Of a DNA stretch of 64,000 nt, positions 3,373 to 57,464 are shown piece after piece; within the stretch, counting starts at the first letter, position 1, and each line of letters opens with the position of its first letter. The notes beneath the pieces were generated by a model. It had not been told where the DNA came from and made no database searches. It worked only from the letters and a program-made list of their open reading frames with translations. Source of the stretch: a phage; the NCBI GenBank assembly GCA_026066175.1, contig GCA_026066175.1_4721.1; one strand, 5' to 3'. The translations under genes were made by a program, and so were the position numbers.

Positions 3373-3404
3373 CCCTCCTCCTTCCCTTACGGGTTGGAGG
3401 AGGG
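3373..3404. terminator. GC-rich hairpin (ccctcctcc / ggaggaggg)
   Basis: Inverted repeat between 3415..3729 and 3051..3362. Confidence 0.45.
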
Positions 3405-9821: not shown

Positions 9822-10379
9822 TTATTCCATCCAGACTTCTTCGTCGTAATGGTTCTCTATTGCGTTGCGCCAGAAGCGAACGGTATCCAAACTGATCGGC
9901 GTATAGAAATGTTGATCAACACCGACGTTGAGTCCGTTTGCTTTCGCTAACATACAACGATGGATATGTCCAAACAGATTGAAATACCCTGGGTTTCTTT
10001 CACTGGGTTTATGGCATAACCAATAAGACTCGTCGTTATTGATCGGCAATACCAACGGATGTTCATAAACCGCAGCAAATCCCATATCAAGGAGCTTGTC
10101 GCGGAAAGCATCAAAACTCAACCCGCTCGCCTTGCAGGCGTCCTCGTCCCAATTCCCGAGTACTAACTGAACCTGGATATCAGAACGAATGGCTTCAATG
10201 AACTCGAACTTGCCCCAATCGCCCAGATGCCACAACACGCTGTTCTTAGGGAGATTGTTGATGGCTTTCAGCATGTGTTGGTTCATGTCAGCCACGCTTG
10301 CAAACGGACGACGTGAATACACCCGGGTGCGTTCGCTGTCAAAATGCGTATCTGAAGTAAAGAAGATAGATGGGATCAT
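9822..10379 (-). CDS. Calcineurin-like metallophosphoesterase
   Basis: Motifs SDTHFD, HLGDWG, VLGNWDED and GHIH in the expected order. Confidence 0.55.
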   Translation of the reverse strand: MIPSIFFTSDTHFDSERTRVYSRRPFASVADMNQHMLKAINNLPKNSVLWHLGDWGKFEFIEAIRSDIQVQLVLGNWDEDACKASGLSFDAFRDKLLDMGFAAVYEHPLVLPINNDESYWLCHKPSERNPGYFNLFGHIHRCMLAKANGLNVGVDQHFYTPISLDTVRFWRNAIENHYDEEVWME

Positions 10380-10858
10380 CGATCTAATTGCTCCAGAAAT
10401 GCACGCCCTGATTTACTTGCACGCAAATGTTGTTCTGCGGAAGTCAGCAGCACGTCGGTTGGCGTATAGGCTACACTGCCTTTCCACTCCGTCTTCAGCT
10501 TACCCTCTTCGATGCTGAACTGAATCAGTTGTTGGGTGCCAAAATTAAGCGTGTTGGTTGCTGCGCTGAATACACCACCCATCATGCTGTAACCAAAGAC
10601 TTTCGCATCTTCTGCATAGAAGTCGTTGTCGATCAATTTGTTCTGTAGTTCCAGCTGATCGGACGGCAGCAGTCCACCATCAAAGACACTTAGAATACCG
10701 GCTAAGCGATAAATACTCACCTTTCCTGAAACACCCACCACGTAATTGCCGTATGGTGTTTCCTCAAGCTTCGCGACGACGGTGCGATCATCGGAGGTTT
10801 TCATTGAAACCTCAATGCCATCATCGATTTCCGTTAATGTTAAATCAACAATACTCAT
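10376..10858 (-). CDS. Hypothetical protein (160 aa)
   Basis: ORF on the gene strand; 4-nt overlap with the downstream gene. Confidence 0.4.
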   Translation of the reverse strand: MSIVDLTLTEIDDGIEVSMKTSDDRTVVAKLEETPYGNYVVGVSGKVSIYRLAGILSVFDGGLLPSDQLELQNKLIDNDFYAEDAKVFGYSMMGGVFSAATNTLNFGTQQLIQFSIEEGKLKTEWKGSVAYTPTDVLLTSAEQHLRASKSGRAFLEQLDR

Positions 10859-11604: not shown

Positions 11605-11645
11605 ACTCACGTAAGTAATATAGCCGTGAAAGGATTTGTATTGGC
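11605..11645 (-). promoter_or_regulatory. Candidate phage early promoter, copy A (minus-strand TTTCACGGCTATATTACTTACGTG)
   Basis: One of four copies of a conserved motif with a TATATTAC core, each 50 to 100 nt upstream of a minus-strand start codon. Confidence 0.4.
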
Positions 11646-11772
11646 ACGTTCGACGTTCATCGTATTTTATGGATTGTCGAATGACGTCATTTTAAGGGAC
11701 ATCCCCGGCCTCCTCCCCAGGAAAGGTGTGGGGAGGAGTTTTTACCAGACTTTTATTAATTCGAGTGCGAGT

Positions 11773-15422: not shown

Positions 15423-15456
15423 CTTCCTCCCTACCCATAACGGGCGGGGAGGAAGG
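15423..15456. terminator. GC-rich hairpin (cttcctccc / ggggaggaagg), bidirectional position
   Basis: Lies between the convergent genes 13949..15403 (+) and 15473..15811 (-). Confidence 0.5.
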
Positions 15457-15472
15457 TTTATGTGGTTATGAC

Positions 15473-15811
15473 TTAGAACCAGAGTTCTTTCATGAAGTAG
15501 GCTTCCATATCGTAAATAAGCCACTCATCTGGGATTTCTAAAGGATCGTCTTCGGTTAAGGTGAGCATGTGCAGGGCGAACGCACGCTTAATATCTTCCA
15601 ACAGCTTATCATCACCGTAACCTTCGGGTAGTTTACGGTCAACCAGCTGGGTTTGTTTATAGACATCGCGGAACGCTTCAGGATTATGTTTATCCATCGG
15701 GAATTGTTCAGCAGCCTGAACCATCGAAAGCGTCCAGCTTACAACATTGTAACGCTCACCGTTAATTTCACTGAACTTATCATCGATTAAACAGATTTGT
15801 TGTATATTCAT
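15473..15811 (-). CDS. Hypothetical protein (112 aa)
   Basis: ORF on the gene strand. Confidence 0.4.
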   Translation of the reverse strand: MNIQQICLIDDKFSEINGERYNVVSWTLSMVQAAEQFPMDKHNPEAFRDVYKQTQLVDRKLPEGYGDDKLLEDIKRAFALHMLTLTEDDPLEIPDEWLIYDMEAYFMKELWF

Positions 15812-16749: not shown

Positions 16750-19011
16750 TTACAATTCGAAATCTTCATCGATAACGCGTTGGGTTAGCACCTTGTCGCT
16801 GAAGAACTCCACCTTACGTTGATGGTATTTCCGATGTGCTTCAATCGACGTACACACCAGATACCAGAACGTGGGTGTCATACCCTCGAACTTCCCTTTC
16901 AGCTGACGTAGTCGACCTAACACCTGAATGTTACCAGTTCTCGACCCCATCGCTAACGTCATGAACGTCATCACCAAGTCAGGAAGATCGATTCCTGTAC
17001 CAGCCGATTTTACCGTTGTCACACTGATATCATTATCCAGTAACACCATGAAATCTTCTTCAGCGGTATAAGGACCTATCTCCAACTCAGGGATACGTTC
17101 ACTTAAGTAATGCGATAACGACTTGCACATATCAACGGTTGCACAATACACCAACATCTTCATGCCTTCCTGATATTGGTTCATGAAACCTTTGATAATA
17201 ACCGTATAGATAAAGTTGAAATAGGCGAGTTTGAGTTGCTTATTCTTCATGATAGACTGTTCGAATACCGTGTGAGAATAAGAACCTCCAAAGCCTTTGT
17301 ATCGGACTTTATCCGTACTGCGTAGTCGATACGTCACCGCATTTACCGCGATGTATTTCTTGTATTCACATTTCGCATAACGTGCTTCTTTCGGATACAT
17401 CAAATACAGCATCCGCTCGATGAACGGATCGTCAGACACCGCCGTTGCCGACAGATAAATGATTTCCGGAATATTCGCGTAACACTTCACTTTGAACAAG
17501 AAATGCAGAGCTTCGTGACATTCATCGTGGATTAACAATCCAATGCCTGTTTTCTCCCAGAACTCGACTGGATGGAAAACATAAGGTGCGACACAGTTGT
17601 TCTTTTCATAATCGGTTATATAACGCTGAAACATGTTCAGTGAGAATAACGCAATTTTGAAATCCAACTCACCTTGTTCTACCAACGTCTGAAATTCCAA
17701 CATGCTGTAACGAGGAATGTCGGGATGCGGTGGGTCAGACTGGGCTGTACCACGTATCTCGATAACATCACCTGGTTCCATACCGAAGAAACTTAGCAGT
17801 GAGCTACGCCATCCAGGCATGTACCTCGGTGACAGAATGATGCCCGTCCGTACACCACGTCGGAAGGTGATCTCCTGCGACATTGCGGTGTTGTGCGTGA
17901 CGATATGGTCTTTAATAACATAAAGGCTTTCGTCGTTGTCCACCGTGATGCAACGTGCCTTCGCTTTCACCGTCGGCACGATGCCGCCAATCGCTAAACC
18001 AGGAAGCGTGTTAACGGGAAGATCATCTGGAATCTCAATGCCGTCAGGAATAAGCTTAAGCAAATCGGAATGGTAAATTAATGTCTCCATCGTGTAACTA
18101 TTGATGGGGCATTTATACGCGATTCCCCCTAACCGATAAGCCAACTCCCAGACCTCGGTCATTATCTGCGAATCGGTGGTTCTGACCGCAAGGTGAGCCC
18201 ACCCTTCTTCAACACGCAGCACGCAACGATCTTTGATGAGTTCTCTGAAACGATCAAGACCCACGAGTTCTTTCGGTTCGTAAAGTCGGATTCTTACCGG
18301 ACGAGATCGTGACGATCTGTCATTAAGACGTTCCATGATTTCACTCGTGCTGAGCACCTTGTCAGGATCCGTGCATTGCCAGAGATGATCACCACACGCT
18401 TCAACCATTCGTCCATCTTCAAAGAAGACAGCGTAAAGCTGAATATCGTCATGATCAAAGATAGCAGTTACGTTCGTCGGTAAACCATCCGCGCCGATGA
18501 CCTCATCACCCACCTGGAGCTCACCAATCGGCTTCCAACCGCTTGGAACCTTAACGGGTGTATGGAGAGCCAATGCTTTCCCAGACCCCGTGCCTGCGGT
18601 GTTTAGGCTCATTCTGAAAGGGGTATCCTTACCCCCATCCATGTACTCCAACCATTCTTGCTGATCTTCACGCCACGGAAACTTCCAGTTCTTCACAAAC
18701 TCCACTTCCTTACCTGGAACCGGATCGTGGTAAACGATTTCCAACCACTCCTTTCGAATTCCTCGAGAAAAGATAAAATCCAAAAACGACTTCAGCTGTT
18801 CACGAAGTAAGTAGACCTCGCTATAATCGCTTCTTGCTGCGGCGTAGGTGTTGATGGTATCGGTGACCATTCTCCGTGTACGAGGGTCGCGTCGTTTCCG
18901 TAGATGCAAACAACGGTCTCGAAGGTAATGGCCAATCAAATGGGCAAATCGAAGTCCGTATCCGCTCAGCTTCATGCCATGCGAGAAGACGTCGATACGA
19001 GCTAACTTCAT
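16750..19011 (-). CDS. DExH-box helicase with an intein-like insertion in the Walker A motif
   Basis: GTGSGK is followed by a 229-residue insert ending VTHN, then T; removing the insert gives GTGSGKT. Downstream DExH box LLIHDECHEAL. Confidence 0.55.
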   Translation of the reverse strand: MKLARIDVFSHGMKLSGYGLRFAHLIGHYLRDRCLHLRKRRDPRTRRMVTDTINTYAAARSDYSEVYLLREQLKSFLDFIFSRGIRKEWLEIVYHDPVPGKEVEFVKNWKFPWREDQQEWLEYMDGGKDTPFRMSLNTAGTGSGKALALHTPVKVPSGWKPIGELQVGDEVIGADGLPTNVTAIFDHDDIQLYAVFFEDGRMVEACGDHLWQCTDPDKVLSTSEIMERLNDRSSRSRPVRIRLYEPKELVGLDRFRELIKDRCVLRVEEGWAHLAVRTTDSQIMTEVWELAYRLGGIAYKCPINSYTMETLIYHSDLLKLIPDGIEIPDDLPVNTLPGLAIGGIVPTVKAKARCITVDNDESLYVIKDHIVTHNTAMSQEITFRRGVRTGIILSPRYMPGWRSSLLSFFGMEPGDVIEIRGTAQSDPPHPDIPRYSMLEFQTLVEQGELDFKIALFSLNMFQRYITDYEKNNCVAPYVFHPVEFWEKTGIGLLIHDECHEALHFLFKVKCYANIPEIIYLSATAVSDDPFIERMLYLMYPKEARYAKCEYKKYIAVNAVTYRLRSTDKVRYKGFGGSYSHTVFEQSIMKNKQLKLAYFNFIYTVIIKGFMNQYQEGMKMLVYCATVDMCKSLSHYLSERIPELEIGPYTAEEDFMVLLDNDISVTTVKSAGTGIDLPDLVMTFMTLAMGSRTGNIQVLGRLRQLKGKFEGMTPTFWYLVCTSIEAHRKYHQRKVEFFSDKVLTQRVIDEDFEL
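17890..18576 (-). other. Putative intein (229 codons, Ala1 ... His-Asn, +1 Thr)
   Basis: Hint-like blocks GELQVGDEVIGADG near the N-terminus and CITVDNDESLYVIKDHIVTHN at the C-terminus; sits exactly inside the P-loop. Confidence 0.5.
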
Positions 19012-21047
19012 AACGTGATTACATCCTCCGGTTTAGGTTCTTTACGCGGTAGAAGCATGTAGTCGATCGGATGATCTGGCTTCATGGTTGGGATATAACT
19101 GTTCGGGTTTTGGAACGCATCCAGTTGCTCTTGGTGAGCGAACTTCATACTCAAGGAGCGCATGTTCATGTTCTTCTTGAAGGTACTGAAATAACGAGTC
19201 GTTCCCTGTTTCGGCATGCGGTAATCTTTCGTGTGTGGTGAACGAATCATACTCGCGTAGAGAATAACGTCCAGATGCGATAGATTCATTCGTAAACGTT
19301 GCGCACACAGACGATGCCAATAATACAGTACGTTGGCTACTTCTTCTGGTGTCGCTTCATCTTCCGAAAGGAATCCTGCACTGAACGAACCTTTCCCGAA
19401 TTTGAATTCACGTTCGATTTCTTTTGCGTATTCCATCATGTTTTTATGGATGAGTGGCATCTGGAATAGCGTCCGTGAATTGTCCCAATGTTTCAAGTCG
19501 AAGATCACAATCCCGTCTGCTGTTACTTCCCAGCTATGGCGTTTGAGATAACGGATAAACGCTTTGCTTGGTACAACAGGACGTCCACAGAAATCGAAAT
19601 TGACTTTGAGTTTACGATAGCTCTCATCTTTCCTGTCGTAAATCTCCATATCGCAAAGCGTCATGTTGAACAGACGTTGCGGGATAAGCGAACTGATCTC
19701 TTCCGCTTCAGCTACATCGTACAACATGTTCGCCAGACCGAGTTTCATCTTAATCAGCACGTGTTTGCCTTTCAGCTCACGGGCTAATTTGATGTCGTTC
19801 ATGTTCTGGCTGTAACGAAGGATATGTTGATATTCCGGCGGGATTGGTGACGTAGACACGGTGGACGAACCATCGTGATGTTTGGTCGAAAGAATGTTCT
19901 GGGTAACCTGTTGTGAACCTGTACGTGCTGAGCAGTCTCCGATGTTGTCGGTCAATGCAAAGTTATGGCTTAATTCACCATAGCACGTTGCACAGACACC
20001 AGCAGGATCAGAATGATGACAGTAACAAACGGAACGCATGTTCACAATGGTACCGATCAATTCTTTCATGTGAGGCTGTATCGACAACAGCGAACCATCT
20101 TCACGTAAGATGAATCGACCGTGGAAACCTTTAAGATCGGTTTCATCACGTATCGGCATCGGAATGGTTTCTCTGCTTCCACAATCACCAGGATGCAGAC
20201 GTTGTACAACCGCCGTTGCGATTTGCAGCTCACGTCCGAAATATTCTGACTTCTTAATCTGCTCCTTGTTGAACAACAAAGATTTTGCCGCAGAGCGACT
20301 TTCTTTTAAGCTGTCCGGAAGCGAGATCAAGCCTGCTGCATACGAGCGCATCACTGGGTCACGGAAGATCTCCGAGTTGATATCGGTTAAGAAACCACGC
20401 ATCCCAATACACTGCAATACCTGTCCGATTGACACGTGTTCGGTTCTTACCGCACGTGCGATCGGGTTGGCATGCAATGTTTTATCGGTACTTAAAACTT
20501 TTGTTAGTTTCTTGTATGCGCTCTCAATACCTTCGCGGGTGGGTTCCGCTTCAGCGATGATTTTCTTCACTTCGGGATGTACGGTAATCTGATAAAAATC
20601 ATCCGCACAGATGGTCGTTACGTATTCCTCCAACGCATACGTAAAGAAGTTATAAACGTGGTTAAACATATCGAACAACGCTTTCCAGAGAACCTCACGA
20701 TTCTCTTGCGGATACGCATACATGCATTGACGATAGGCTGCGCTTTGTAATGCAACGGAAGAACCTGCCGTAAACTTGCGTTTATCCACCAGGTTCTCTT
20801 TCGTTAACGGTGTCTCAGGATACATGCGATGTAAAGACCAATGCATGTAGCTAAAGAAAATGCGTCGCGCACGCAATTCATGAACACCATCGTCCATCTC
20901 GATATACACACGGTCATTAGGCTGTGCCCACTCGAACACCTCATCAACCGGCCAATGCATAAGCTCTCGCGCCCGTACACGGCGTTTCGTGGTGATCGTC
21001 TGTACTGTATTCATTATTTTTACTTTCCGATTAAGTGGTTTTATCAT
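19008..21047 (-). CDS. Large hypothetical protein (679 aa), Cys-cluster containing; possibly a polymerase subunit
   Basis: ATGA overlap with the helicase start; contains CYCHHSDPAGVCATC. Function not assignable from sequence alone. Confidence 0.4.
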   Translation of the reverse strand: MIKPLNRKVKIMNTVQTITTKRRVRARELMHWPVDEVFEWAQPNDRVYIEMDDGVHELRARRIFFSYMHWSLHRMYPETPLTKENLVDKRKFTAGSSVALQSAAYRQCMYAYPQENREVLWKALFDMFNHVYNFFTYALEEYVTTICADDFYQITVHPEVKKIIAEAEPTREGIESAYKKLTKVLSTDKTLHANPIARAVRTEHVSIGQVLQCIGMRGFLTDINSEIFRDPVMRSYAAGLISLPDSLKESRSAAKSLLFNKEQIKKSEYFGRELQIATAVVQRLHPGDCGSRETIPMPIRDETDLKGFHGRFILREDGSLLSIQPHMKELIGTIVNMRSVCYCHHSDPAGVCATCYGELSHNFALTDNIGDCSARTGSQQVTQNILSTKHHDGSSTVSTSPIPPEYQHILRYSQNMNDIKLARELKGKHVLIKMKLGLANMLYDVAEAEEISSLIPQRLFNMTLCDMEIYDRKDESYRKLKVNFDFCGRPVVPSKAFIRYLKRHSWEVTADGIVIFDLKHWDNSRTLFQMPLIHKNMMEYAKEIEREFKFGKGSFSAGFLSEDEATPEEVANVLYYWHRLCAQRLRMNLSHLDVILYASMIRSPHTKDYRMPKQGTTRYFSTFKKNMNMRSLSMKFAHQEQLDAFQNPNSYIPTMKPDHPIDYMLLPRKEPKPEDVITL

Positions 21048-21122
21048 ACAGTGTATTCATTCCGTTGGAATTTACTCCGGGAGTCCCTTCCCTTAGGTTA
21101 TATAGGTGTTAATATATCTCGG

Positions 21123-21608
21123 TTATCCTGCTTTCTTCTGAAGGCTATAAGGATCCATCGCATCGGAGCGGTCGGCAACGATGGTAAGAATGAAGCCTTT
21201 TATCTGTCTCACTTCGGTAACCCGGAGTCCCCTATCGTTACGATAAACATTTTCTTCGCCGACCAGTTTTGGTCGAATAACATAAACCCCATCAACGAAC
21301 GGAAACGTTGAATACGGATAAATACCAATACGAATAATATTCGGATGATCACCTCGAGGGTCACGTCCAAACACATCAACTCTACCGTAAATCGTGCCGT
21401 CCGCACCTTCCACTTCAATAAGGTCGTTGCGAATATCCTGAAACAGTTGTTCTAAGGTCTCTACGGGATATGTATAAGCGACGCCTAATGCAACATCCTC
21501 AATGGTCTTAACGCTAAATCCGTTAAGCCAAATAATCCGATCATCTGTCCATGTTTCTTCATACGCTGTTAATCCGTCGCCGTATATGTTGGCGTGTGCT
21601 ATCTCCAT
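21123..21608 (-). CDS. Hypothetical protein (161 aa)
   Basis: ORF on the gene strand. Confidence 0.4.
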   Translation of the reverse strand: MEIAHANIYGDGLTAYEETWTDDRIIWLNGFSVKTIEDVALGVAYTYPVETLEQLFQDIRNDLIEVEGADGTIYGRVDVFGRDPRGDHPNIIRIGIYPYSTFPFVDGVYVIRPKLVGEENVYRNDRGLRVTEVRQIKGFILTIVADRSDAMDPYSLQKKAG

Positions 21609-21720
21609 AATCTCATTTCCTCTTCTCTGTTAGGATAAATGACATGCTGGATAACGTTGCCTTTGCATATATTGCTTTATTTCCGTCAGAAATAACGGAA
21701 AATAAAAACAACGGCATAAA

Positions 21721-21751
21721 CCCCTCCCACCTCCACATGGGAGAGGGAGGG
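21721..21751. terminator. GC-rich hairpin (cccctccc ... gggaggg)
   Basis: Inverted repeat in the intergenic gap. Confidence 0.45.
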
Positions 21752-21757
21752 TGTATG

Positions 21758-22120
21758 TTATTCTACATTATCTTCTACGGCTTCGGATTCATCCGCTTCT
21801 GCGAAGCTTTCCTGAACCGCAGTGGTATCCCAGTTCGCTGCGTAATCAGCCATGGCTTCGCGCAGCGCTTCTTCACCCGCATCACCAGCCAGGTCAAGTA
21901 CAACCAACCCTTGTGCGACGTTCTGCGCTACGGTATCGATAACCGTTGCATCCTCTTCAAAGCTACGTACCGGTTCAATGGTACCAACATCAACAGCGTA
22001 GTTCGTGGTTGCGGTAAGGACAGCAACCTGTAATGCGTTGCTGTCTTCGTCATGAAGTGCTGCTTCAATACCGATTGGACGGGCCAGTTCTTGCAGTGTC
22101 AATTTACGAATTAAGTTCAT
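21758..22120 (-). CDS. Small highly acidic protein (120 aa)
   Basis: Very D/E-rich throughout, especially the C-terminus (ESFAEADESEAVEDNVE). Confidence 0.4.
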   Translation of the reverse strand: MNLIRKLTLQELARPIGIEAALHDEDSNALQVAVLTATTNYAVDVGTIEPVRSFEEDATVIDTVAQNVAQGLVVLDLAGDAGEEALREAMADYAANWDTTAVQESFAEADESEAVEDNVE

Positions 22121-22143
22121 TATGTCTTTTCCTCAGGTGAATG

Positions 22144-22572
22144 TTAGCAATCGTTTAAAACTTTTTCGATACGATGGTTGACAAGCTCATTGAACGACTC
22201 TTCTGCTTGTTCGATAATTTCATCAACGTCAATATCTAATCGTTGGGGTTGGATGACGTGCTCTTTCATGGTTTCCAGCCAGTATTCGGCTTTAATCATG
22301 ACGTTAACAACATGTTCAACCTGACTGCGTAGGTCGATAATCTGGCAATCAGGATTATTAATATCGATGACGTGTCCGTGGTGGTTGATAAACCCAAGCT
22401 TATTCGATGCTTTTACGGCATCGCGAGTAAGTTCTTGCAGGATTAACGCATTTACGTAATTCACTGCGACGGAACGATTTTCTTTATCACTCATACCAGG
22501 GATCCTCTTTAAGTGTTCACATTCTAGTGTTAAGCAGTTAAAATAAACCGTTCCTTTAATCAGCATAAGCAT
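22144..22572 (-). CDS. Hypothetical protein (142 aa)
   Basis: ORF on the gene strand. Confidence 0.4.
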   Translation of the reverse strand: MLMLIKGTVYFNCLTLECEHLKRIPGMSDKENRSVAVNYVNALILQELTRDAVKASNKLGFINHHGHVIDINNPDCQIIDLRSQVEHVVNVMIKAEYWLETMKEHVIQPQRLDIDVDEIIEQAEESFNELVNHRIEKVLNDC

Positions 22573-22601
22573 CCTCCTCCCACCGCACGGGCAGGAGGAG
22601 G
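22573..22601. terminator. GC-rich hairpin (cctcctcc / ggaggagg)
   Basis: Inverted repeat in the intergenic gap. Confidence 0.45.
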
Positions 22602-22612
22602 CGTAATATGCG

Positions 22613-23080
22613 TCAGAAAGGAAGACGATCTTTATATTCTAACAACGTATCTTCGAAGCAGGCTGCTAGCTCAGACTGCAATTCGATTCGACCTTGTTCA
22701 CCAAACAACTCCAACAGCATCAATCCACGCGCTGTTTTCGTTGCGACCTCTTCACAAATACAAAGGTCGTGTGCAACGTCATCACCAACATCCTTACGTA
22801 ACTGTGCTGCAATGGGCTTAAGATTGCCGTCCTCGTCGTATTCGTCACGAAACGCATCATAAGCCGCATCAATGTTCGCCGTCCGCGTCAATCCTTCGGA
22901 ATCTCGCCAGTCTCGATAGAGTCCAAGCAGACGATTGTGATTCTTCGTCTTGACGTTAGGTGCTGGAAGATTGCGCAATAGATGCGGAGTAATCAATGCA
23001 ATCACGCTGTCTGAATGATCCATATCTACCTCGTTAGCTTTCGCAATCATCCGCATCGATGATCTGACCACCAGCAACAT
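22613..23080 (-). CDS. Hypothetical protein
   Basis: ORF on the gene strand; start uncertain because it overlaps the 3' end of the upstream gene. Confidence 0.35.
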   Translation of the reverse strand: MLLVVRSSMRMIAKANEVDMDHSDSVIALITPHLLRNLPAPNVKTKNHNRLLGLYRDWRDSEGLTRTANIDAAYDAFRDEYDEDGNLKPIAAQLRKDVGDDVAHDLCICEEVATKTARGLMLLELFGEQGRIELQSELAACFEDTLLEYKDRLPF

Positions 23081-25202
23081 TCAACTGGTGATACAATATC
23101 CTCAACGCACGGTTACCCCCAATGGGATACTTCTCGAAGTTGGTCGCAATCGGAATCGCAGAGGGTTTGTCGGTTGCATAGATGCTTTCCGTGATGCTAT
23201 CCACCTGTTTCGGGTTGTTCGCGTAATCCATGAATACGCTTGCGAACCATCCACCGGCGAAGGCGGTGACTTCGCGATGTTCAGATTCACCACAATAACG
23301 TGTTGGTTGCTCTTTACCAGGAGAACTGTACTTATCACTGTTGCTGAGTTTCGACGGCAAACCATGTGCTTGCAGTTTAGGAATACCTACCGCAGACCAA
23401 TCGTTTGCTGTCTTCTCCAACATCATGATGTACGTATCACCAATCGCAATATCGTTCTTGGTGGTTCGCCATTGACCAGAACGACCACGATAGCGTACAG
23501 GGCCTTTCTTCAACGGGAACTCTCGAATCAGGTTCTCCATACGCTCCGAGCCTGCTGCGATACTGTCTGTCGGGATATAGACTTCTGTACCATGGCGTTG
23601 TACGTAACGTAGATGGTCCCATTTATCGTCATCTGTGATACAATGTTTCTCAACAACCTGCTCCACAAACTCAGGACTAACGATATAGTAGTAACGCATC
23701 AATGTGTTCCATGCGGTTTCCAGATCGCCTGCATCCATTACCGGTTTCAGTTCACGCATGATCTGGTCGCCAACACCATTGATATACGGTGCGTTAACAC
23801 GACTTAAACTCATCCTTTTAATTACCGTGCTGTCGTCGAACATAAAGTCCGCAACATTCCCCCATTGGTCTACGGGCATCTCGTCATCTTCCATGATATC
23901 CGTTACGACGAATTTATCACCCGCCATACCGGTAAATTTAAATCCGATACCAGGGACCACATCGTAGGTATACGTGATGGTCACACGCCAGTCATCAAGA
24001 TTCTCCTTACGATAATCACGGGTCGGCAACACATGACGTAGCTGACCGTTCGGATTGCGAATGTCAATACCATGCTCAGCATCAGCGAGGTTCAACCACC
24101 ACATCACCGTCTGATGATGTCTGATGGGTGTACCAGCACGTTCACGTTCGTATTTACGCACCGCATCCTGAATACGGGTATACAGCAGACCGATGGCGTT
24201 TTCATATTTCAGGAATTGACGATACGGAGGACGCATCTTCTCTTCCATCATAATCGCACGCTCGCGGGCTTGACATCCAGAACGACGATGTCGATCGCTG
24301 ACAACATCGATATCCGTTACACGCGCATTCGGCTCAGCGTAAGTGAGATCATCGTAAACATAATCCACACGCTGAAGATTGCACGTCATCATGTCAACGA
24401 CGCTGAGGATAGGATCGATTTCGCGTGTTGCTGCAAGTAACCCATCTTTACGAATACGCTCACCGTTCTCGGGTATTGCTTGATATACCTCGTCATCACC
24501 GTAGAGATTGATTGGGTATCGCGATTTACCTGATGTAATTGTTCGCTTCTCAATACCGGTACTGGTGAAATGCTTCAATACACCACGACGAGCAACACCA
24601 CCATCTTCAATACACTGGTAGAAGCTACCGAAACACACCTTGCAATCGCGACCGTAACCCCACTCGCGTGTTTCTTGATTGATCGCTGGGCTTTCCATCA
24701 AACGAGAATATCGCGGTACAATCTGGCCTCGACGAAGGGAATGGAACAAGTTGGTTGGTCGAAAACGGAAACCGTACTGCTGATGCATGATGTGATGCTC
24801 AGGCACTTCAAGCAAGCGTAGCTCGTGACGGTTACCATCCTCTTGGTTTTCATACAGCACGTAATGCATCGTGTTTGTTTTGATGCTGTTTGCTGTATGT
24901 CCTGGTTGAAACCGCGGAATGATATCTATGATGCGAGATTCAACTGGAAACTCTACTGACCAAGTGTTCTGTCCGTACTGGTATTCAATCCCCGTCGTTA
25001 ATCGGGACGGCTTCGCATCTTTGATAACCAACGCTTGGCTAAGATGTCCACCAAACATCGCAGCGCGCTGTGCTGAGTTATAATGCAATAGCCCGTTAAG
25101 TCCAGTCCCTACACCCGTATACTCCTGTTTAATGGGAATGATTTTACCTTCAGCGATTGCCTGCTTCACAGATTCATAAAGAGGTTTTTCTTTATAATGC
25201 AT
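23034..25202 (-). CDS. Multisubunit RNA polymerase beta-subunit-like protein (C-terminal beta motifs)
   Basis: FTGMAGDKFVVTDIMEDDEMPVDQWGNVADFMFD resembles the beta GDKxAGRHGNKGV...ED.P...G.P.D region. Start trimmed from 25367 to ATG 25202..25200, preceded by AGGAAG. Confidence 0.5.
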   Translation of the reverse strand: MHYKEKPLYESVKQAIAEGKIIPIKQEYTGVGTGLNGLLHYNSAQRAAMFGGHLSQALVIKDAKPSRLTTGIEYQYGQNTWSVEFPVESRIIDIIPRFQPGHTANSIKTNTMHYVLYENQEDGNRHELRLLEVPEHHIMHQQYGFRFRPTNLFHSLRRGQIVPRYSRLMESPAINQETREWGYGRDCKVCFGSFYQCIEDGGVARRGVLKHFTSTGIEKRTITSGKSRYPINLYGDDEVYQAIPENGERIRKDGLLAATREIDPILSVVDMMTCNLQRVDYVYDDLTYAEPNARVTDIDVVSDRHRRSGCQARERAIMMEEKMRPPYRQFLKYENAIGLLYTRIQDAVRKYERERAGTPIRHHQTVMWWLNLADAEHGIDIRNPNGQLRHVLPTRDYRKENLDDWRVTITYTYDVVPGIGFKFTGMAGDKFVVTDIMEDDEMPVDQWGNVADFMFDDSTVIKRMSLSRVNAPYINGVGDQIMRELKPVMDAGDLETAWNTLMRYYYIVSPEFVEQVVEKHCITDDDKWDHLRYVQRHGTEVYIPTDSIAAGSERMENLIREFPLKKGPVRYRGRSGQWRTTKNDIAIGDTYIMMLEKTANDWSAVGIPKLQAHGLPSKLSNSDKYSSPGKEQPTRYCGESEHREVTAFAGGWFASVFMDYANNPKQVDSITESIYATDKPSAIPIATNFEKYPIGGNRALRILYHQLNVAGGQIIDADDCES

Positions 25203-25233
25203 AGGACTTCCTATTATCGAATTGAGGTACGTC

Positions 25234-25587
25234 ATGTCTAATACGCCCCTGAACGACTTTCTTAAGACAAACCCCGATGACCTCATCCACAACCTTGATT
25301 TCAGGAACGTTGTTGAGATGCATCTGGAATATTTCAAAAATGCCGGTTTGGTTTCTACGATAGACATACCACCCGAACGCGCCTACGAATTCGATGGTAA
25401 CTTTTATGGATTATGTCGGGTTATGCTTGGCGAAGGCAGTGAACCTATGCACTGGGTTACCCTAAGAATCAACGGTTATCGTGATCCTACGGAATACACC
25501 GCCGATGTCCTAACGATGAAGATTGTCGATTCAAGCGCCATCAACACGTTAAAACAGCAATATCGCACAATCCACTACAGCGCTTAA
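25234..25587 (+). CDS. Hypothetical protein
   Basis: Track start 25222 is TTG; first ATG at 25234 is preceded by GAGGT. Followed by a hairpin. Confidence 0.4.
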   Translation: MSNTPLNDFLKTNPDDLIHNLDFRNVVEMHLEYFKNAGLVSTIDIPPERAYEFDGNFYGLCRVMLGEGSEPMHWVTLRINGYRDPTEYTADVLTMKIVDSSAINTLKQQYRTIHYSA

Positions 25588-25592
25588 GATAA

Positions 25593-25621
25593 CCCTCCCA
25601 CGGCGTAAAGCGGCGGGAGGG
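25593..25621. terminator. GC-rich hairpin (ccctccc / gggaggg)
   Basis: Lies between convergent genes. Confidence 0.45.
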
Positions 25622-30210: not shown

Positions 30211-30248
30211 ATCAAGGAGGTAATATAAGCGTGAATAATTTTGGATTC
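30211..30248 (-). promoter_or_regulatory. Candidate phage early promoter, copy D
   Basis: Plus-strand ggaggtaatataagcgtgaataatt matches the motif shared with copies A to C. Confidence 0.35.
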
Positions 30249-35485: not shown

Positions 35486-35525
35486 TATCACAGAAGTAAT
35501 ATAGCCGTGAAAATTATTGTATTAA
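35486..35525 (-). promoter_or_regulatory. Candidate phage early promoter, copy B
   Basis: Plus-strand cagaagtaatatagccgtgaaaattattgtatt is nearly identical to copy A. Confidence 0.4.
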
Positions 35526-36364: not shown

Positions 36365-36390
36365 CCCTCCCCGCGCTATGCAGGGAGGGT
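36365..36390. terminator. GC-rich hairpin (ccctcccc / gggagggt)
   Basis: Inverted repeat in the intergenic gap. Confidence 0.45.
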
Positions 36391-37066: not shown

Positions 37067-37304
37067 TTAGCATTGGTTATTGATTGCTTCTATTTCATCG
37101 ATATACGGTTCTACGTCATCGCCCTCCACGAATTCGTTGAACCAACAGTCAATCGTTGAGATAACCGGTGACTGATGTTCACATTTCTTAGATACCTTAA
37201 ACGGAACGTTGTTATCCATCATACCGAGTTCGGGTCGGAATCGCCCGAAATGTTTCGCAGTCCAAATGTCTGGGACGATATGGTTGTTCATAGCGTCTCC
37301 GTCG
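37067..37304 (-). CDS. RNA polymerase beta-prime N-terminal subunit, exon 3
   Basis: Frame is open upstream of the track ATG back to the proposed 3' splice site; the exon begins c-gac-gga-gac (xDGD) and continues AMNNHIVP...LGMMDNN, which aligns with beta-prime DGDQMAVHVP...LMMSTNN. Confidence 0.6.
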
Positions 37305-37683
37305 CTGTTTGTCGACTATATCTTCATCTTCATTGCGAAGAGACTCTCGTTTGGGTTTGTGTTTAACAAAGCCTACTCTACTCAACATCGCGTCTTTCGA
37401 TAGTCTGTGAGCACACATCTTAACGAATATTCGTGGGTTCCTACAGACAGGTGAATATTCTTGTTGAGATGCTTCGCTGCGGATTATTCCCGTCCTACCT
37501 CTTTTACCATACCCAGTTCATTACGCTGGCCCTCATCGATGTCACCATGATGAGTTGGTGTGTAGTCCGATTACAGAAACTTCCCGTCAATTAGAGAGTT
37601 TTAACTATGCTCCTGTTACCAGGAACCAGATCCCGACGGCATCAATAAATCAACGTAAGTTATTGATTTAATTGAAAAAACTG
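37305..37683 (-). ncRNA. Group I intron 2 (about 379 nt)
   Basis: Minus-strand core elements AAUUGACGGGAAG (P), AAUAAUCCGCAGCG (Q), GCUCACAGACUAUCG (R) and GAAGAUAUAGUCG (S). Preceding exon ends in U, intron ends in G, and an internal GAUCUG can pair with exon CAGAUU. Confidence 0.6.
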
Positions 37684-37702
37684 AAATCTGCATTATCTAA
37701 AC
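37684..37702 (-). CDS. RNA polymerase beta-prime, 19-nt mini-exon (exon 2)
   Basis: gtttagataatgcagattt supplies (C)LDNADF when joined to the flanking exons. Confidence 0.55.
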
Positions 37703-38071
37703 CTTCGATATGGTTCGCTACGCCATACCCGCACATACGTGCAGCTTACGTCTTTCACGTAAGAAGAGACTATATCTTTCACCCTCAGCTTTACCTGTTA
37801 GGGGCTCCCATTTCGGCGGTCGTTTGACCGGTGGTTTCCCACGCCGCTTGGCCCTAACGCCCGTAAGCGATAGTCGTTGAGCACATCTCCGTTCTGGAGA
37901 CTTCGCTGCGGATTCCCCAATCCTTACTGCTTTTACCGTACCTGAATGATTAGTTCAGCCCCATGCTCTGTTCCCAGGCATGGTTGGTGAGCAAGGCTCT
38001 AAGTAGGTTCCCGCTATTAGAGAGTTCCTCGTGATAGCATTACTGTGTCACTGGGCCTAATGACCCTTTCA
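37703..38071 (-). ncRNA. Group I intron 1 (about 369 nt)
   Basis: Minus-strand core elements AAUAGCGGGAAC (P), GGAAUCCGCAGCG (Q), GCUCAACGACUAUCG (R) and GAAAGAUAUAGUC (S). Proposed P1 pairs exon AUGAUCU with GGGUCAU across a UGAAA loop; intron ends in G. Confidence 0.55.
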
Positions 38072-41356: not shown

Positions 41357-41395
41357 ATTCACCTAGGTAATATAACCCTGAAATTTTTTTCAATA
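41357..41395 (-). promoter_or_regulatory. Candidate phage early promoter, copy C (upstream of the chimallin-like gene)
   Basis: Plus-strand cacctaggtaatataaccctgaaattttttt matches copies A, B and D. Confidence 0.4.
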
Positions 41396-42631: not shown

Positions 42632-42663
42632 CCCTCCTCCTTCCCTGATGGGTTGGAGGAGGG
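42632..42663. terminator. GC-rich hairpin (ccctcctcc / ggaggaggg)
   Basis: Lies between convergent genes. Confidence 0.45.
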
Positions 42664-57435: not shown

Positions 57436-57464
57436 CCTCCTCTGGGAATGGAACCCAGAGGAGG
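57436..57464. terminator. GC-rich hairpin (cctcctctggg / cccagaggagg)
   Basis: Eleven-bp stem downstream of the plus-strand gene. Confidence 0.5.

Follow-up and report, generated by a model that had tools for sequence, protein, structure and literature searches.

The gene analysed here encodes an ortholog of gp168 of Escherichia phage vB_EcoM_Goslar, an early-transcribed, strongly acidic protein that is abundant in purified Goslar virion preparations. Our preferred but tentative reading, to which we give a probability of about 0.35, is that gp168 is a particle-associated polyanionic binding protein (a decoy, a shield or a chaperone), the body of which would sit on a conserved partner while its acidic surface and tail would mask a basic surface that binds nucleic acid. 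The family is already catalogued: gp168 is annotated as hypothetical in Goslar and has been mentioned as a high-copy virion-associated protein, with no characterised family. On the other hand, we found no report of its paralogy with gp170, of the insertion into the polymerase operon, of the invariant body versus the charge-conserving tail, or of the early class versus the abundance in virion preparations.

The acidic gene and its locus

The 64,000-nucleotide stretch analysed (the window) is 88% identical to Goslar at the DNA level over positions 19000-25400, and by this sequence relationship it is assigned to a Goslar-like nucleus-forming jumbo phage of the Chimalliviridae. Its genes are called here by the names of their Goslar orthologs, and the features of the locus are listed in the table. 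The gp168 open reading frame (ORF) runs from an ATG start to a TAA stop over 120 codons, and a GAGG sequence is located 9-12 nt 5' of the start codon. The initial annotation had described a small, strongly acidic 120-aa product with few basic residues, and this description was borne out by 26 Asp and Glu (21.7%) against 5 Lys and Arg, with 1 His and a net charge of -21. Its remark on the acidic last 30 residues also holds, since 10 acidic and 0 basic residues are found there. The calculation of pI and charge that it proposed gave a pI of 3.5 (EMBOSS pK values) and a charge of -20.8 at pH 7; the value of 4.05 returned by Biopython is the lower bound of that routine. Among the 89 ORFs of at least 100 aa in the six frames of the window, gp168 is the most acidic, with a charge per residue of -0.175 compared with -0.108 for the next ORF and a mean of -0.005 (sd 0.054).

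Tryptic peptides of Goslar gp168, for example EAMADYAANWDTTAVQK, are listed in Table S4 of a study of Goslar virions (bioRxiv 10.64898/2026.04.21.720040). Together with a dN/dS of at most 0.02 over codons 1-99, these peptides establish that the gene is real. Therefore, the overlapping plus-strand ORF at 21644..22033 is spurious.

Table. Features of the gp168 locus in the window
Feature	Position	Strand	Basis or remark
Acidic-protein CDS (120 aa), ortholog of Goslar gp168 / YP_009820853.1	21758..22120	-	ORF, alignment, peptides of ortholog
Body of gp168, codons 1-99, predicted helical, net charge -13, motif common to gp170	21824..22120	-	dN/dS, AF2 helices
C-terminal tail of gp168, codons 100-120 and stop, hypervariable, acidic, net charge -8	21758..21823	-	Homolog comparison
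Shine-Dalgarno-like GAGGAAAAG	22126..22134	-	5' of gp168 ATG, inside the 23-nt spacer behind gp169
CCCTCC...GGGAGGG hairpin, conserved	21721..21752	-	5-10 nt past gp168 stop; z = -4.4
gp166-like CDS (161 aa), final gene of the lineage-specific cassette	21123..21608	-	Homology
Non-virion RNA polymerase beta'-like subunit (Goslar gp165), downstream cassette flank	19008..21014	-	Homology
gp169-like CDS (116 aa), upstream neighbour	22144..22494	-	Homology, frames of relatives
CCTCCTCC...GGAGGAGG hairpin, conserved	22573..22601	-	3' of gp170 stop
gp170-like CDS (136 aa), tail-less hypervariable paralog of the acidic protein	22613..23023	-	BLASTP, hhalign
Non-virion RNA polymerase beta-like subunit (Goslar gp171), upstream cassette flank	23034..25202	-	Homology

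The genes of the locus are arranged on the minus strand in the order gp171, gp170, gp169, gp168, a 150-nt spacer (annotated as gp167), gp166, gp165 and gp164, the last of which encodes a helicase in Goslar. The two non-virion polymerase genes are direct neighbours in Erwinia phage RAY and Proteus phage 10, with the helicase gene next in line. It is therefore apparent that the gp166-gp170 block is an insertion specific to the Goslar lineage. Comparison of gp168 with gp169 and gp166 for paralogy showed no similarity. A longer, 142-aa ORF for gp169 is present at 22144-22572 on the minus strand; however, 1-nt indels in Goslar and further relatives put its first 26 codons out of frame, so the ATG at 22494 is the true start. 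An ORF at 21613-21738, corresponding to gp167 of Goslar (region 21609-21757), is broken by 1-2 nt indels among close relatives, and the read density of gp167 in the Goslar RNA-seq data is low. This ORF is probably not a gene and would represent a non-coding spacer with two conserved hairpins.

The read density in Goslar was about 1.4-1.6 reads per nt from gp171 to gp168, 0.4 in the spacer and 1.0-1.25 thereafter. The flat density from gp171 to gp168 indicates that gp168 is co-transcribed with the polymerase gene. Since the density dips only past gp168, the hairpins of the locus are at most partial terminators, and a separate transcription unit of gp169 and gp168 between the two hairpins is not supported for the same reason. 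In relatives, the hairpin 3' of gp168 has invariant stems and a variable loop and is followed by a second small hairpin; it is possibly a partial terminator or a processing site. The sequence CATATTAC, which precedes the hairpin 3' of gp170, matches 7 of 8 positions of the phiKZ-type early promoter core, but it was not retained as an early promoter because a single match of this quality is about what chance predicts.

Some features of the window outside the cassette were also recorded. Hairpins of the form CCTCC...GGAGG occur at gene boundaries, with 19 pattern matches in the window against 0.32 expected by chance. They fall into about 13 loci (e.g., 3374-3403, 11709-11736, 15426-15452, 21723-21750 and 22573-22601 in the gp168 locus, 25594-25620, 36366-36388, 42633-42662 and 57436-57464), and their stems are invariant and their loops variable in relatives. 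The hairpin often precedes T(T)ATG (20 occurrences against 1.8 expected); this combination was considered as a late-promoter signature and was discarded because the enrichment is confounded, and in part explained, by Shine-Dalgarno and ATG pairs. Exact TATATTAC motifs were found four times, at 11615-11622, 30220-30227, 35496-35503 and 41367-41374, all on the minus strand, between genes and in sense orientation; one of the four is located 5' of the chimallin gene. With its flanking letters the motif reads TTTCA(C/G)GG(C/T)TATATTACnnnnGTGA, which matches early promoters that have been predicted in phiKZ and 201phi2-1 (PMC7058600, Table 2). The Rfam scan of the window at gathering thresholds gave no match, and the tRNA scan found none.

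The helicase gene orthologous to Goslar gp164 (16750-19011, minus strand) encodes a 753-aa product compared with 524 aa in Goslar. The difference is an insertion of about 228 aa in the P-loop (GTGSGK/ALALHTPV...IVTHN/T, junctions marked by slashes; residues about 147-373), the flanks of which are 98-99.5% identical to Goslar. The insertion gives weak matches to a Hint domain and to an intein-containing terminase, and by its sequence resembles a mini-intein. Relatives are polymorphic for it, since the product is 753 aa long in one (L015) and 524 aa long in another (L014) and in Goslar. The intron-associated HNH endonuclease gene gp186 of Goslar is absent from the corresponding region of the window, at about 37292-38064; an intron-like segment at about 37309-37696 is kept with 92% identity to Goslar, and the roughly 369 nt behind it have no Goslar counterpart.

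Relatives, selection and a proposed two-part architecture

The window protein and Goslar gp168 (YP_009820853.1, HOV27_gp168) are 90% identical overall, differ at one position in residues 1-99, and share length, synteny and flanking hairpins. The tail alleles differ, with ESFAEADESEAVEDNVE in the window and KTFDGSEEDCAEEDSIE in Goslar, but their charge is equal. The orthologous group comprises 23 homologs at 87-100% identity plus one divergent protein (P0024) at 51%, and the position of the window gene behind gp170 and gp169, between the two non-virion polymerase genes, matches that of the group. When 1.84 billion representatives were searched exhaustively with HMMER, only the Goslar-like cluster and P0024 were retrieved, and a word-indexed search of 5.8 billion proteins together with scans of viral and metagenome contigs added only Goslar-like phages. 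P0024, 126 aa long, comes from a 3.9-kb contig on which the genes are arranged as here, apart from the missing gp169. No Pfam family matched at E <= 0.1, and thus neither Ocr (PF08684) nor ArdA (PF07275) was found; PHROG gave no match and NCBIfam no meaningful one. A profile search against all PDB chains (E <= 10) returned chance matches only (DHDPS, adenylate kinase and subtilisin), and an AlphaFold 3 model of Goslar gp168 matched no known protein (bioRxiv 10.64898/2026.04.21.720040).

Five of the proteins (P0001, P0012, P0013, P0015 and P0020) derive from Goslar-like contigs of about 240 kb that form part of assemblies submitted under the names Shigella sonnei, Shigella flexneri, E. coli O157 and Salmonella Enteritidis. 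Jumbo phages of the Goslar group have therefore been repeatedly co-sequenced with clinical enterobacterial isolates. At one locus (L007, JACXXQ010000003.1), the gp168 protein is 100% identical to that of the window.

The gene next but one upstream, gp170, was identified as a paralog of gp168 (BLASTP E 5e-5; hhalign E 6.5e-5 over a 37-residue motif). The common motif, V-A-x(3)-A-x-G-L-x-V-L-x-L-x-G-x(2)-G-x(3)-L, covers residues 57-93 of gp168. When the two profiles were compared with 711 ORF segments of the window, each was the best non-self match of the other (E 0.0095 and 1.8e-4), and the next-ranked matches had E of about 1. The two genes are in tandem and remain together in a divergent relative (L002). 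In contrast to gp168, gp170 has no acidic tail, carries a net charge of -9 and is hypervariable. The gp170 proteins of the window and of L014 (8001-8414) are only 57% identical, whereas identity between the two reaches 99.3% for the flanking gp171 and 100% for the body of gp168; this pattern suggests allelic replacement or diversifying selection at gp170.

Between the window and five Goslar-like relatives, dS over codons 1-99 of gp168 was 0.58-0.92 and dN was 0-0.013, giving dN/dS of 0.00-0.02. In the comparison with Goslar, the dN/dS of the gp168 body was about 0.01, and those of the other genes were 0.006 (gp171), 0.027 (gp165), 0.051 (gp170), 0.061 (gp166) and 0.14 (gp169). The constraint on the body is thus comparable to that on the polymerase subunit gp171. 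In the tail (codons 100-120), dN reached 0.38-0.64, and 21 distinct sequences were found among the 24 homologs. Nevertheless, the charge was kept in all 24, at -7 to -9 for the tail and -20 to -22 in total; even the tail of P0024, which cannot be aligned, has a charge within the same range. From this pattern we infer a folded body constrained by a partner and a disordered tail selected for charge only. AlphaFold2 gave mean pLDDT values of 37.7 with the 23 close homologs and 42.9 when P0024 and the paralog family were added; both models are unusable, and both place helices at roughly 28-44, 58-78, 80-96 and 99-112.

Transcription class and abundance in virion preparations

In published RNA-seq data comparing knockdown of chimallin (ChmA) with a control, the log2 fold change of gp168 was +0.84 to +1.12 (bioRxiv 10.1101/2023.09.20.558163, Sup. 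Table 2), and all genes from gp162 to gp175 were unchanged or slightly increased. In the same study, gp41, gp58, gp60, gp61, gp207, gp208, gp209, gp7, gp22 and gp23 showed log2 fold changes of -3 to -7, i.e., 8- to 100-fold drops, and early-class genes were found to keep their expression throughout infection (bioRxiv 10.1101/2023.09.20.558163). Because their transcripts are not lowered when nucleus formation is blocked, gp168 and the other genes of gp162-gp175 belong to the early, vesicle-stage class.

Label-free quantitative mass spectrometry of purified Goslar virions placed gp168 among twelve unmodelled proteins with more than 200 copies per virion (bioRxiv 10.64898/2026.04.21.720040). According to Table S4 of that study, gp168 was present at about 219 copies per virion (range 146-344; 8 peptides, 50% coverage), gp169 at about 92, gp170 at about 2.8, gp166 at about 1, and the polymerase subunits gp165 and gp171 at 0.25 and 0. 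Compared with its paralog gp170, gp168 was thus enriched about 80-fold at equal mRNA density, and simple cytoplasmic carry-over is excluded. Chimallin (about 126 copies), PhuZ (about 171) and ChmC (about 78) were detected in the same preparation and were ascribed to co-purifying assemblies, and packaging was validated by the authors for gp60, gp61, gp208 and gp209 only (bioRxiv 10.64898/2026.04.21.720040).

These values have to be read together with the transcription classes. The validated proteins gp60, gp61, gp208 and gp209 are all of the late class, and so are gp58, gp207 (a subunit of the virion polymerase) and the major capsid protein. This late, nucleus-dependent class is common to the modelled and validated virion components and does not include gp168, which shares the early class with the contaminants chimallin (gp246), PhuZ (gp234) and ChmC (gp176). 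Two further proteins, gp158 and gp214, are early-class like gp168 and lie outside the validated packaged set. One rival explanation is therefore that gp168 is not a virion protein but an abundant early protein that belongs or sticks to another assembly, such as nuclear shell fragments or PhuZ filaments, and co-purifies with the virions. The class shared with the three contaminants and the uniformly late class of the validated packaged proteins both speak for it. However, gp168 exceeds chimallin in copy number, so that a stoichiometry of more than 1:1 with the shell protein would be required, and the continued expression of early-class genes leaves packaging feasible. We regard co-purification as doubtful, though as an alternative to be taken seriously.

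The high copy number would also suit an internal head or structural protein that balances the charge of, or spaces, packaged basic proteins and DNA and has no inhibitory target. The retention of charge rather than sequence in the tail and the very strong conservation of the body, as seen in structural partners, agree with such a role. It is nevertheless unlikely, because gp168 is early-class whereas modelled and validated virion components are all late-class, because the protein is absent from every other chimallivirus lineage with similar capsids, and because it is missing from the cryo-EM model.

The location of the cassette between gp171 and gp165 and the flat read density from gp171 to gp168 raise another explanation, namely that gp168 is an accessory of the non-virion RNA polymerase, serving as a chaperone for assembly, import or cleft shielding. 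An acidic protein could fill the DNA-binding cleft, and dedicated import factors for this polymerase are described in phiKZ (PMC13622101). As a variant, gp168 may, by analogy with Iwr1, shield the DNA cleft of the phage RNA polymerase and thereby license import into the phage nucleus. On the other hand, the polymerase subunits amounted to 0-0.25 copies in a preparation rich in gp168, and other chimalliviruses have the same polymerase without the cassette. Both observations disfavour the role of a polymerase accessory, which we consider quite improbable.

Two other small, acidic proteins are encoded in the window by the orthologs of gp158 (10376-10858) and gp162 (15473-15811), both on the minus strand and with pI of about 4.4-4.5. 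Both are early-class, as gp168 is, yet gp158 holds the second rank of all unmodelled proteins in the virion preparation from Goslar, and gp162 is present there at about 127 copies. No similarity of either to gp168 was obvious by inspection, and the gp168 and gp170 profiles matched neither ORF.

Possible modes of action and significance

An acidic composition by itself is compatible with many roles. Ocr (T7 gp0.3), ArdA, Arn, Gam, gp5.9 and Ugi are small, very acidic, early-expressed phage DNA mimics, and gp168 resembles them in size, acidity and transcription class. It differs from them in that it has no sequence similarity to them and its phage hides its DNA; moreover, we know of no description of virion enrichment for Ocr such as that found in the gp168 preparations. 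A classical mimic would block host DNA-binding nucleases early in infection, as an anti-restriction or anti-defence protein of the Ocr, ArdA or Arn kind. The compositional profile (120 aa, a pI of 3.5 and thus below 5, net charge -21, 21.7% Asp and Glu), the early class and the location within a lineage-specific accessory cassette are all in line with this function, and a possible delivery with the virion would permit action ahead of any gene expression. Several observations point the other way. No relation to Pfam families or solved structures was detected, Ocr, ArdA and the solved mimics included. The DNA of chimalliviruses is enclosed first in a vesicle and later in a protein nucleus, and these phages have been described as escaping every known defence that targets DNA (PMC12931631). 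In addition, the near-invariant body (dN/dS about 0.01) does not resemble a product of an arms race, although the paralog gp170 does vary, and the protein is enriched in purified virion preparations. Because the DNA of these phages is shielded, arms-race variation is lacking and homology is missing, a classical anti-restriction function is less likely than a particle-associated binding or decoy function, and we hold it to be improbable. A polyanionic decoy for a nucleic-acid-binding protein, a role broader than anti-restriction, is plausible.

Short, disordered, Asp/Glu-rich tails in which charge is kept over sequence are also known from E. coli SSB, T7 gp2.5 and T4 gp32, where they are attached to a basic DNA-binding core. 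The tail of gp168 is of this kind; however, its body has a net charge of -13 and a pI of 3.7 and is not a basic core, and no SSB or OB-fold family was matched in the Pfam and NCBIfam searches.

In our preferred reading of gp168 as a particle-associated polyanionic binding protein, it would be an early-transcribed, abundant accessory protein confined to Goslar-like nucleus-forming jumbo phages. Its small helical body would dock on a conserved partner, and the negative charge would be the sole conserved property of its disordered C-terminal tail. The large phage particle to which the protein would attach is most likely the virion, or possibly some other phage assembly that co-sediments. Its action would be electrostatic, the acidic surface and the tail occupying the basic nucleic-acid-binding surface of the partner, which need not be a restriction enzyme. 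If the decoy function is right, gp168 represents a new sequence family among the small acidic binding proteins of phages.

A more specific proposal is that gp168 is a pre-loaded decoy: a product of the early operon of which about 200 copies per capsid would be ejected with the genome and would neutralise nucleic-acid-binding sensors or nucleases of the host at the vesicle stage, before phage expression. T4 IPI* and P1 DarA/DarB travel inside the capsid, in copy numbers of tens to hundreds, and are able to act before phage gene expression. Of these, T4 IPI* is a basic protein that is expressed late and matured by proteolysis. None of them is homologous to gp168, the packaging and injection of which are putative. 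To our knowledge, an early-class product that acts across generations is a combination not described for chimalliviruses. We consider the pre-loaded decoy a long shot.

Nucleus-forming jumbo phages are candidates for phage therapy. If gp168 merely co-purifies with virions, it is an ordinary lineage-specific protein. If it does enter the capsid and is injected, it would offer a small and tractable candidate for a factor of the early vesicle stage, and its invariant body and charge-only tail would provide clear handles for mutational analysis.
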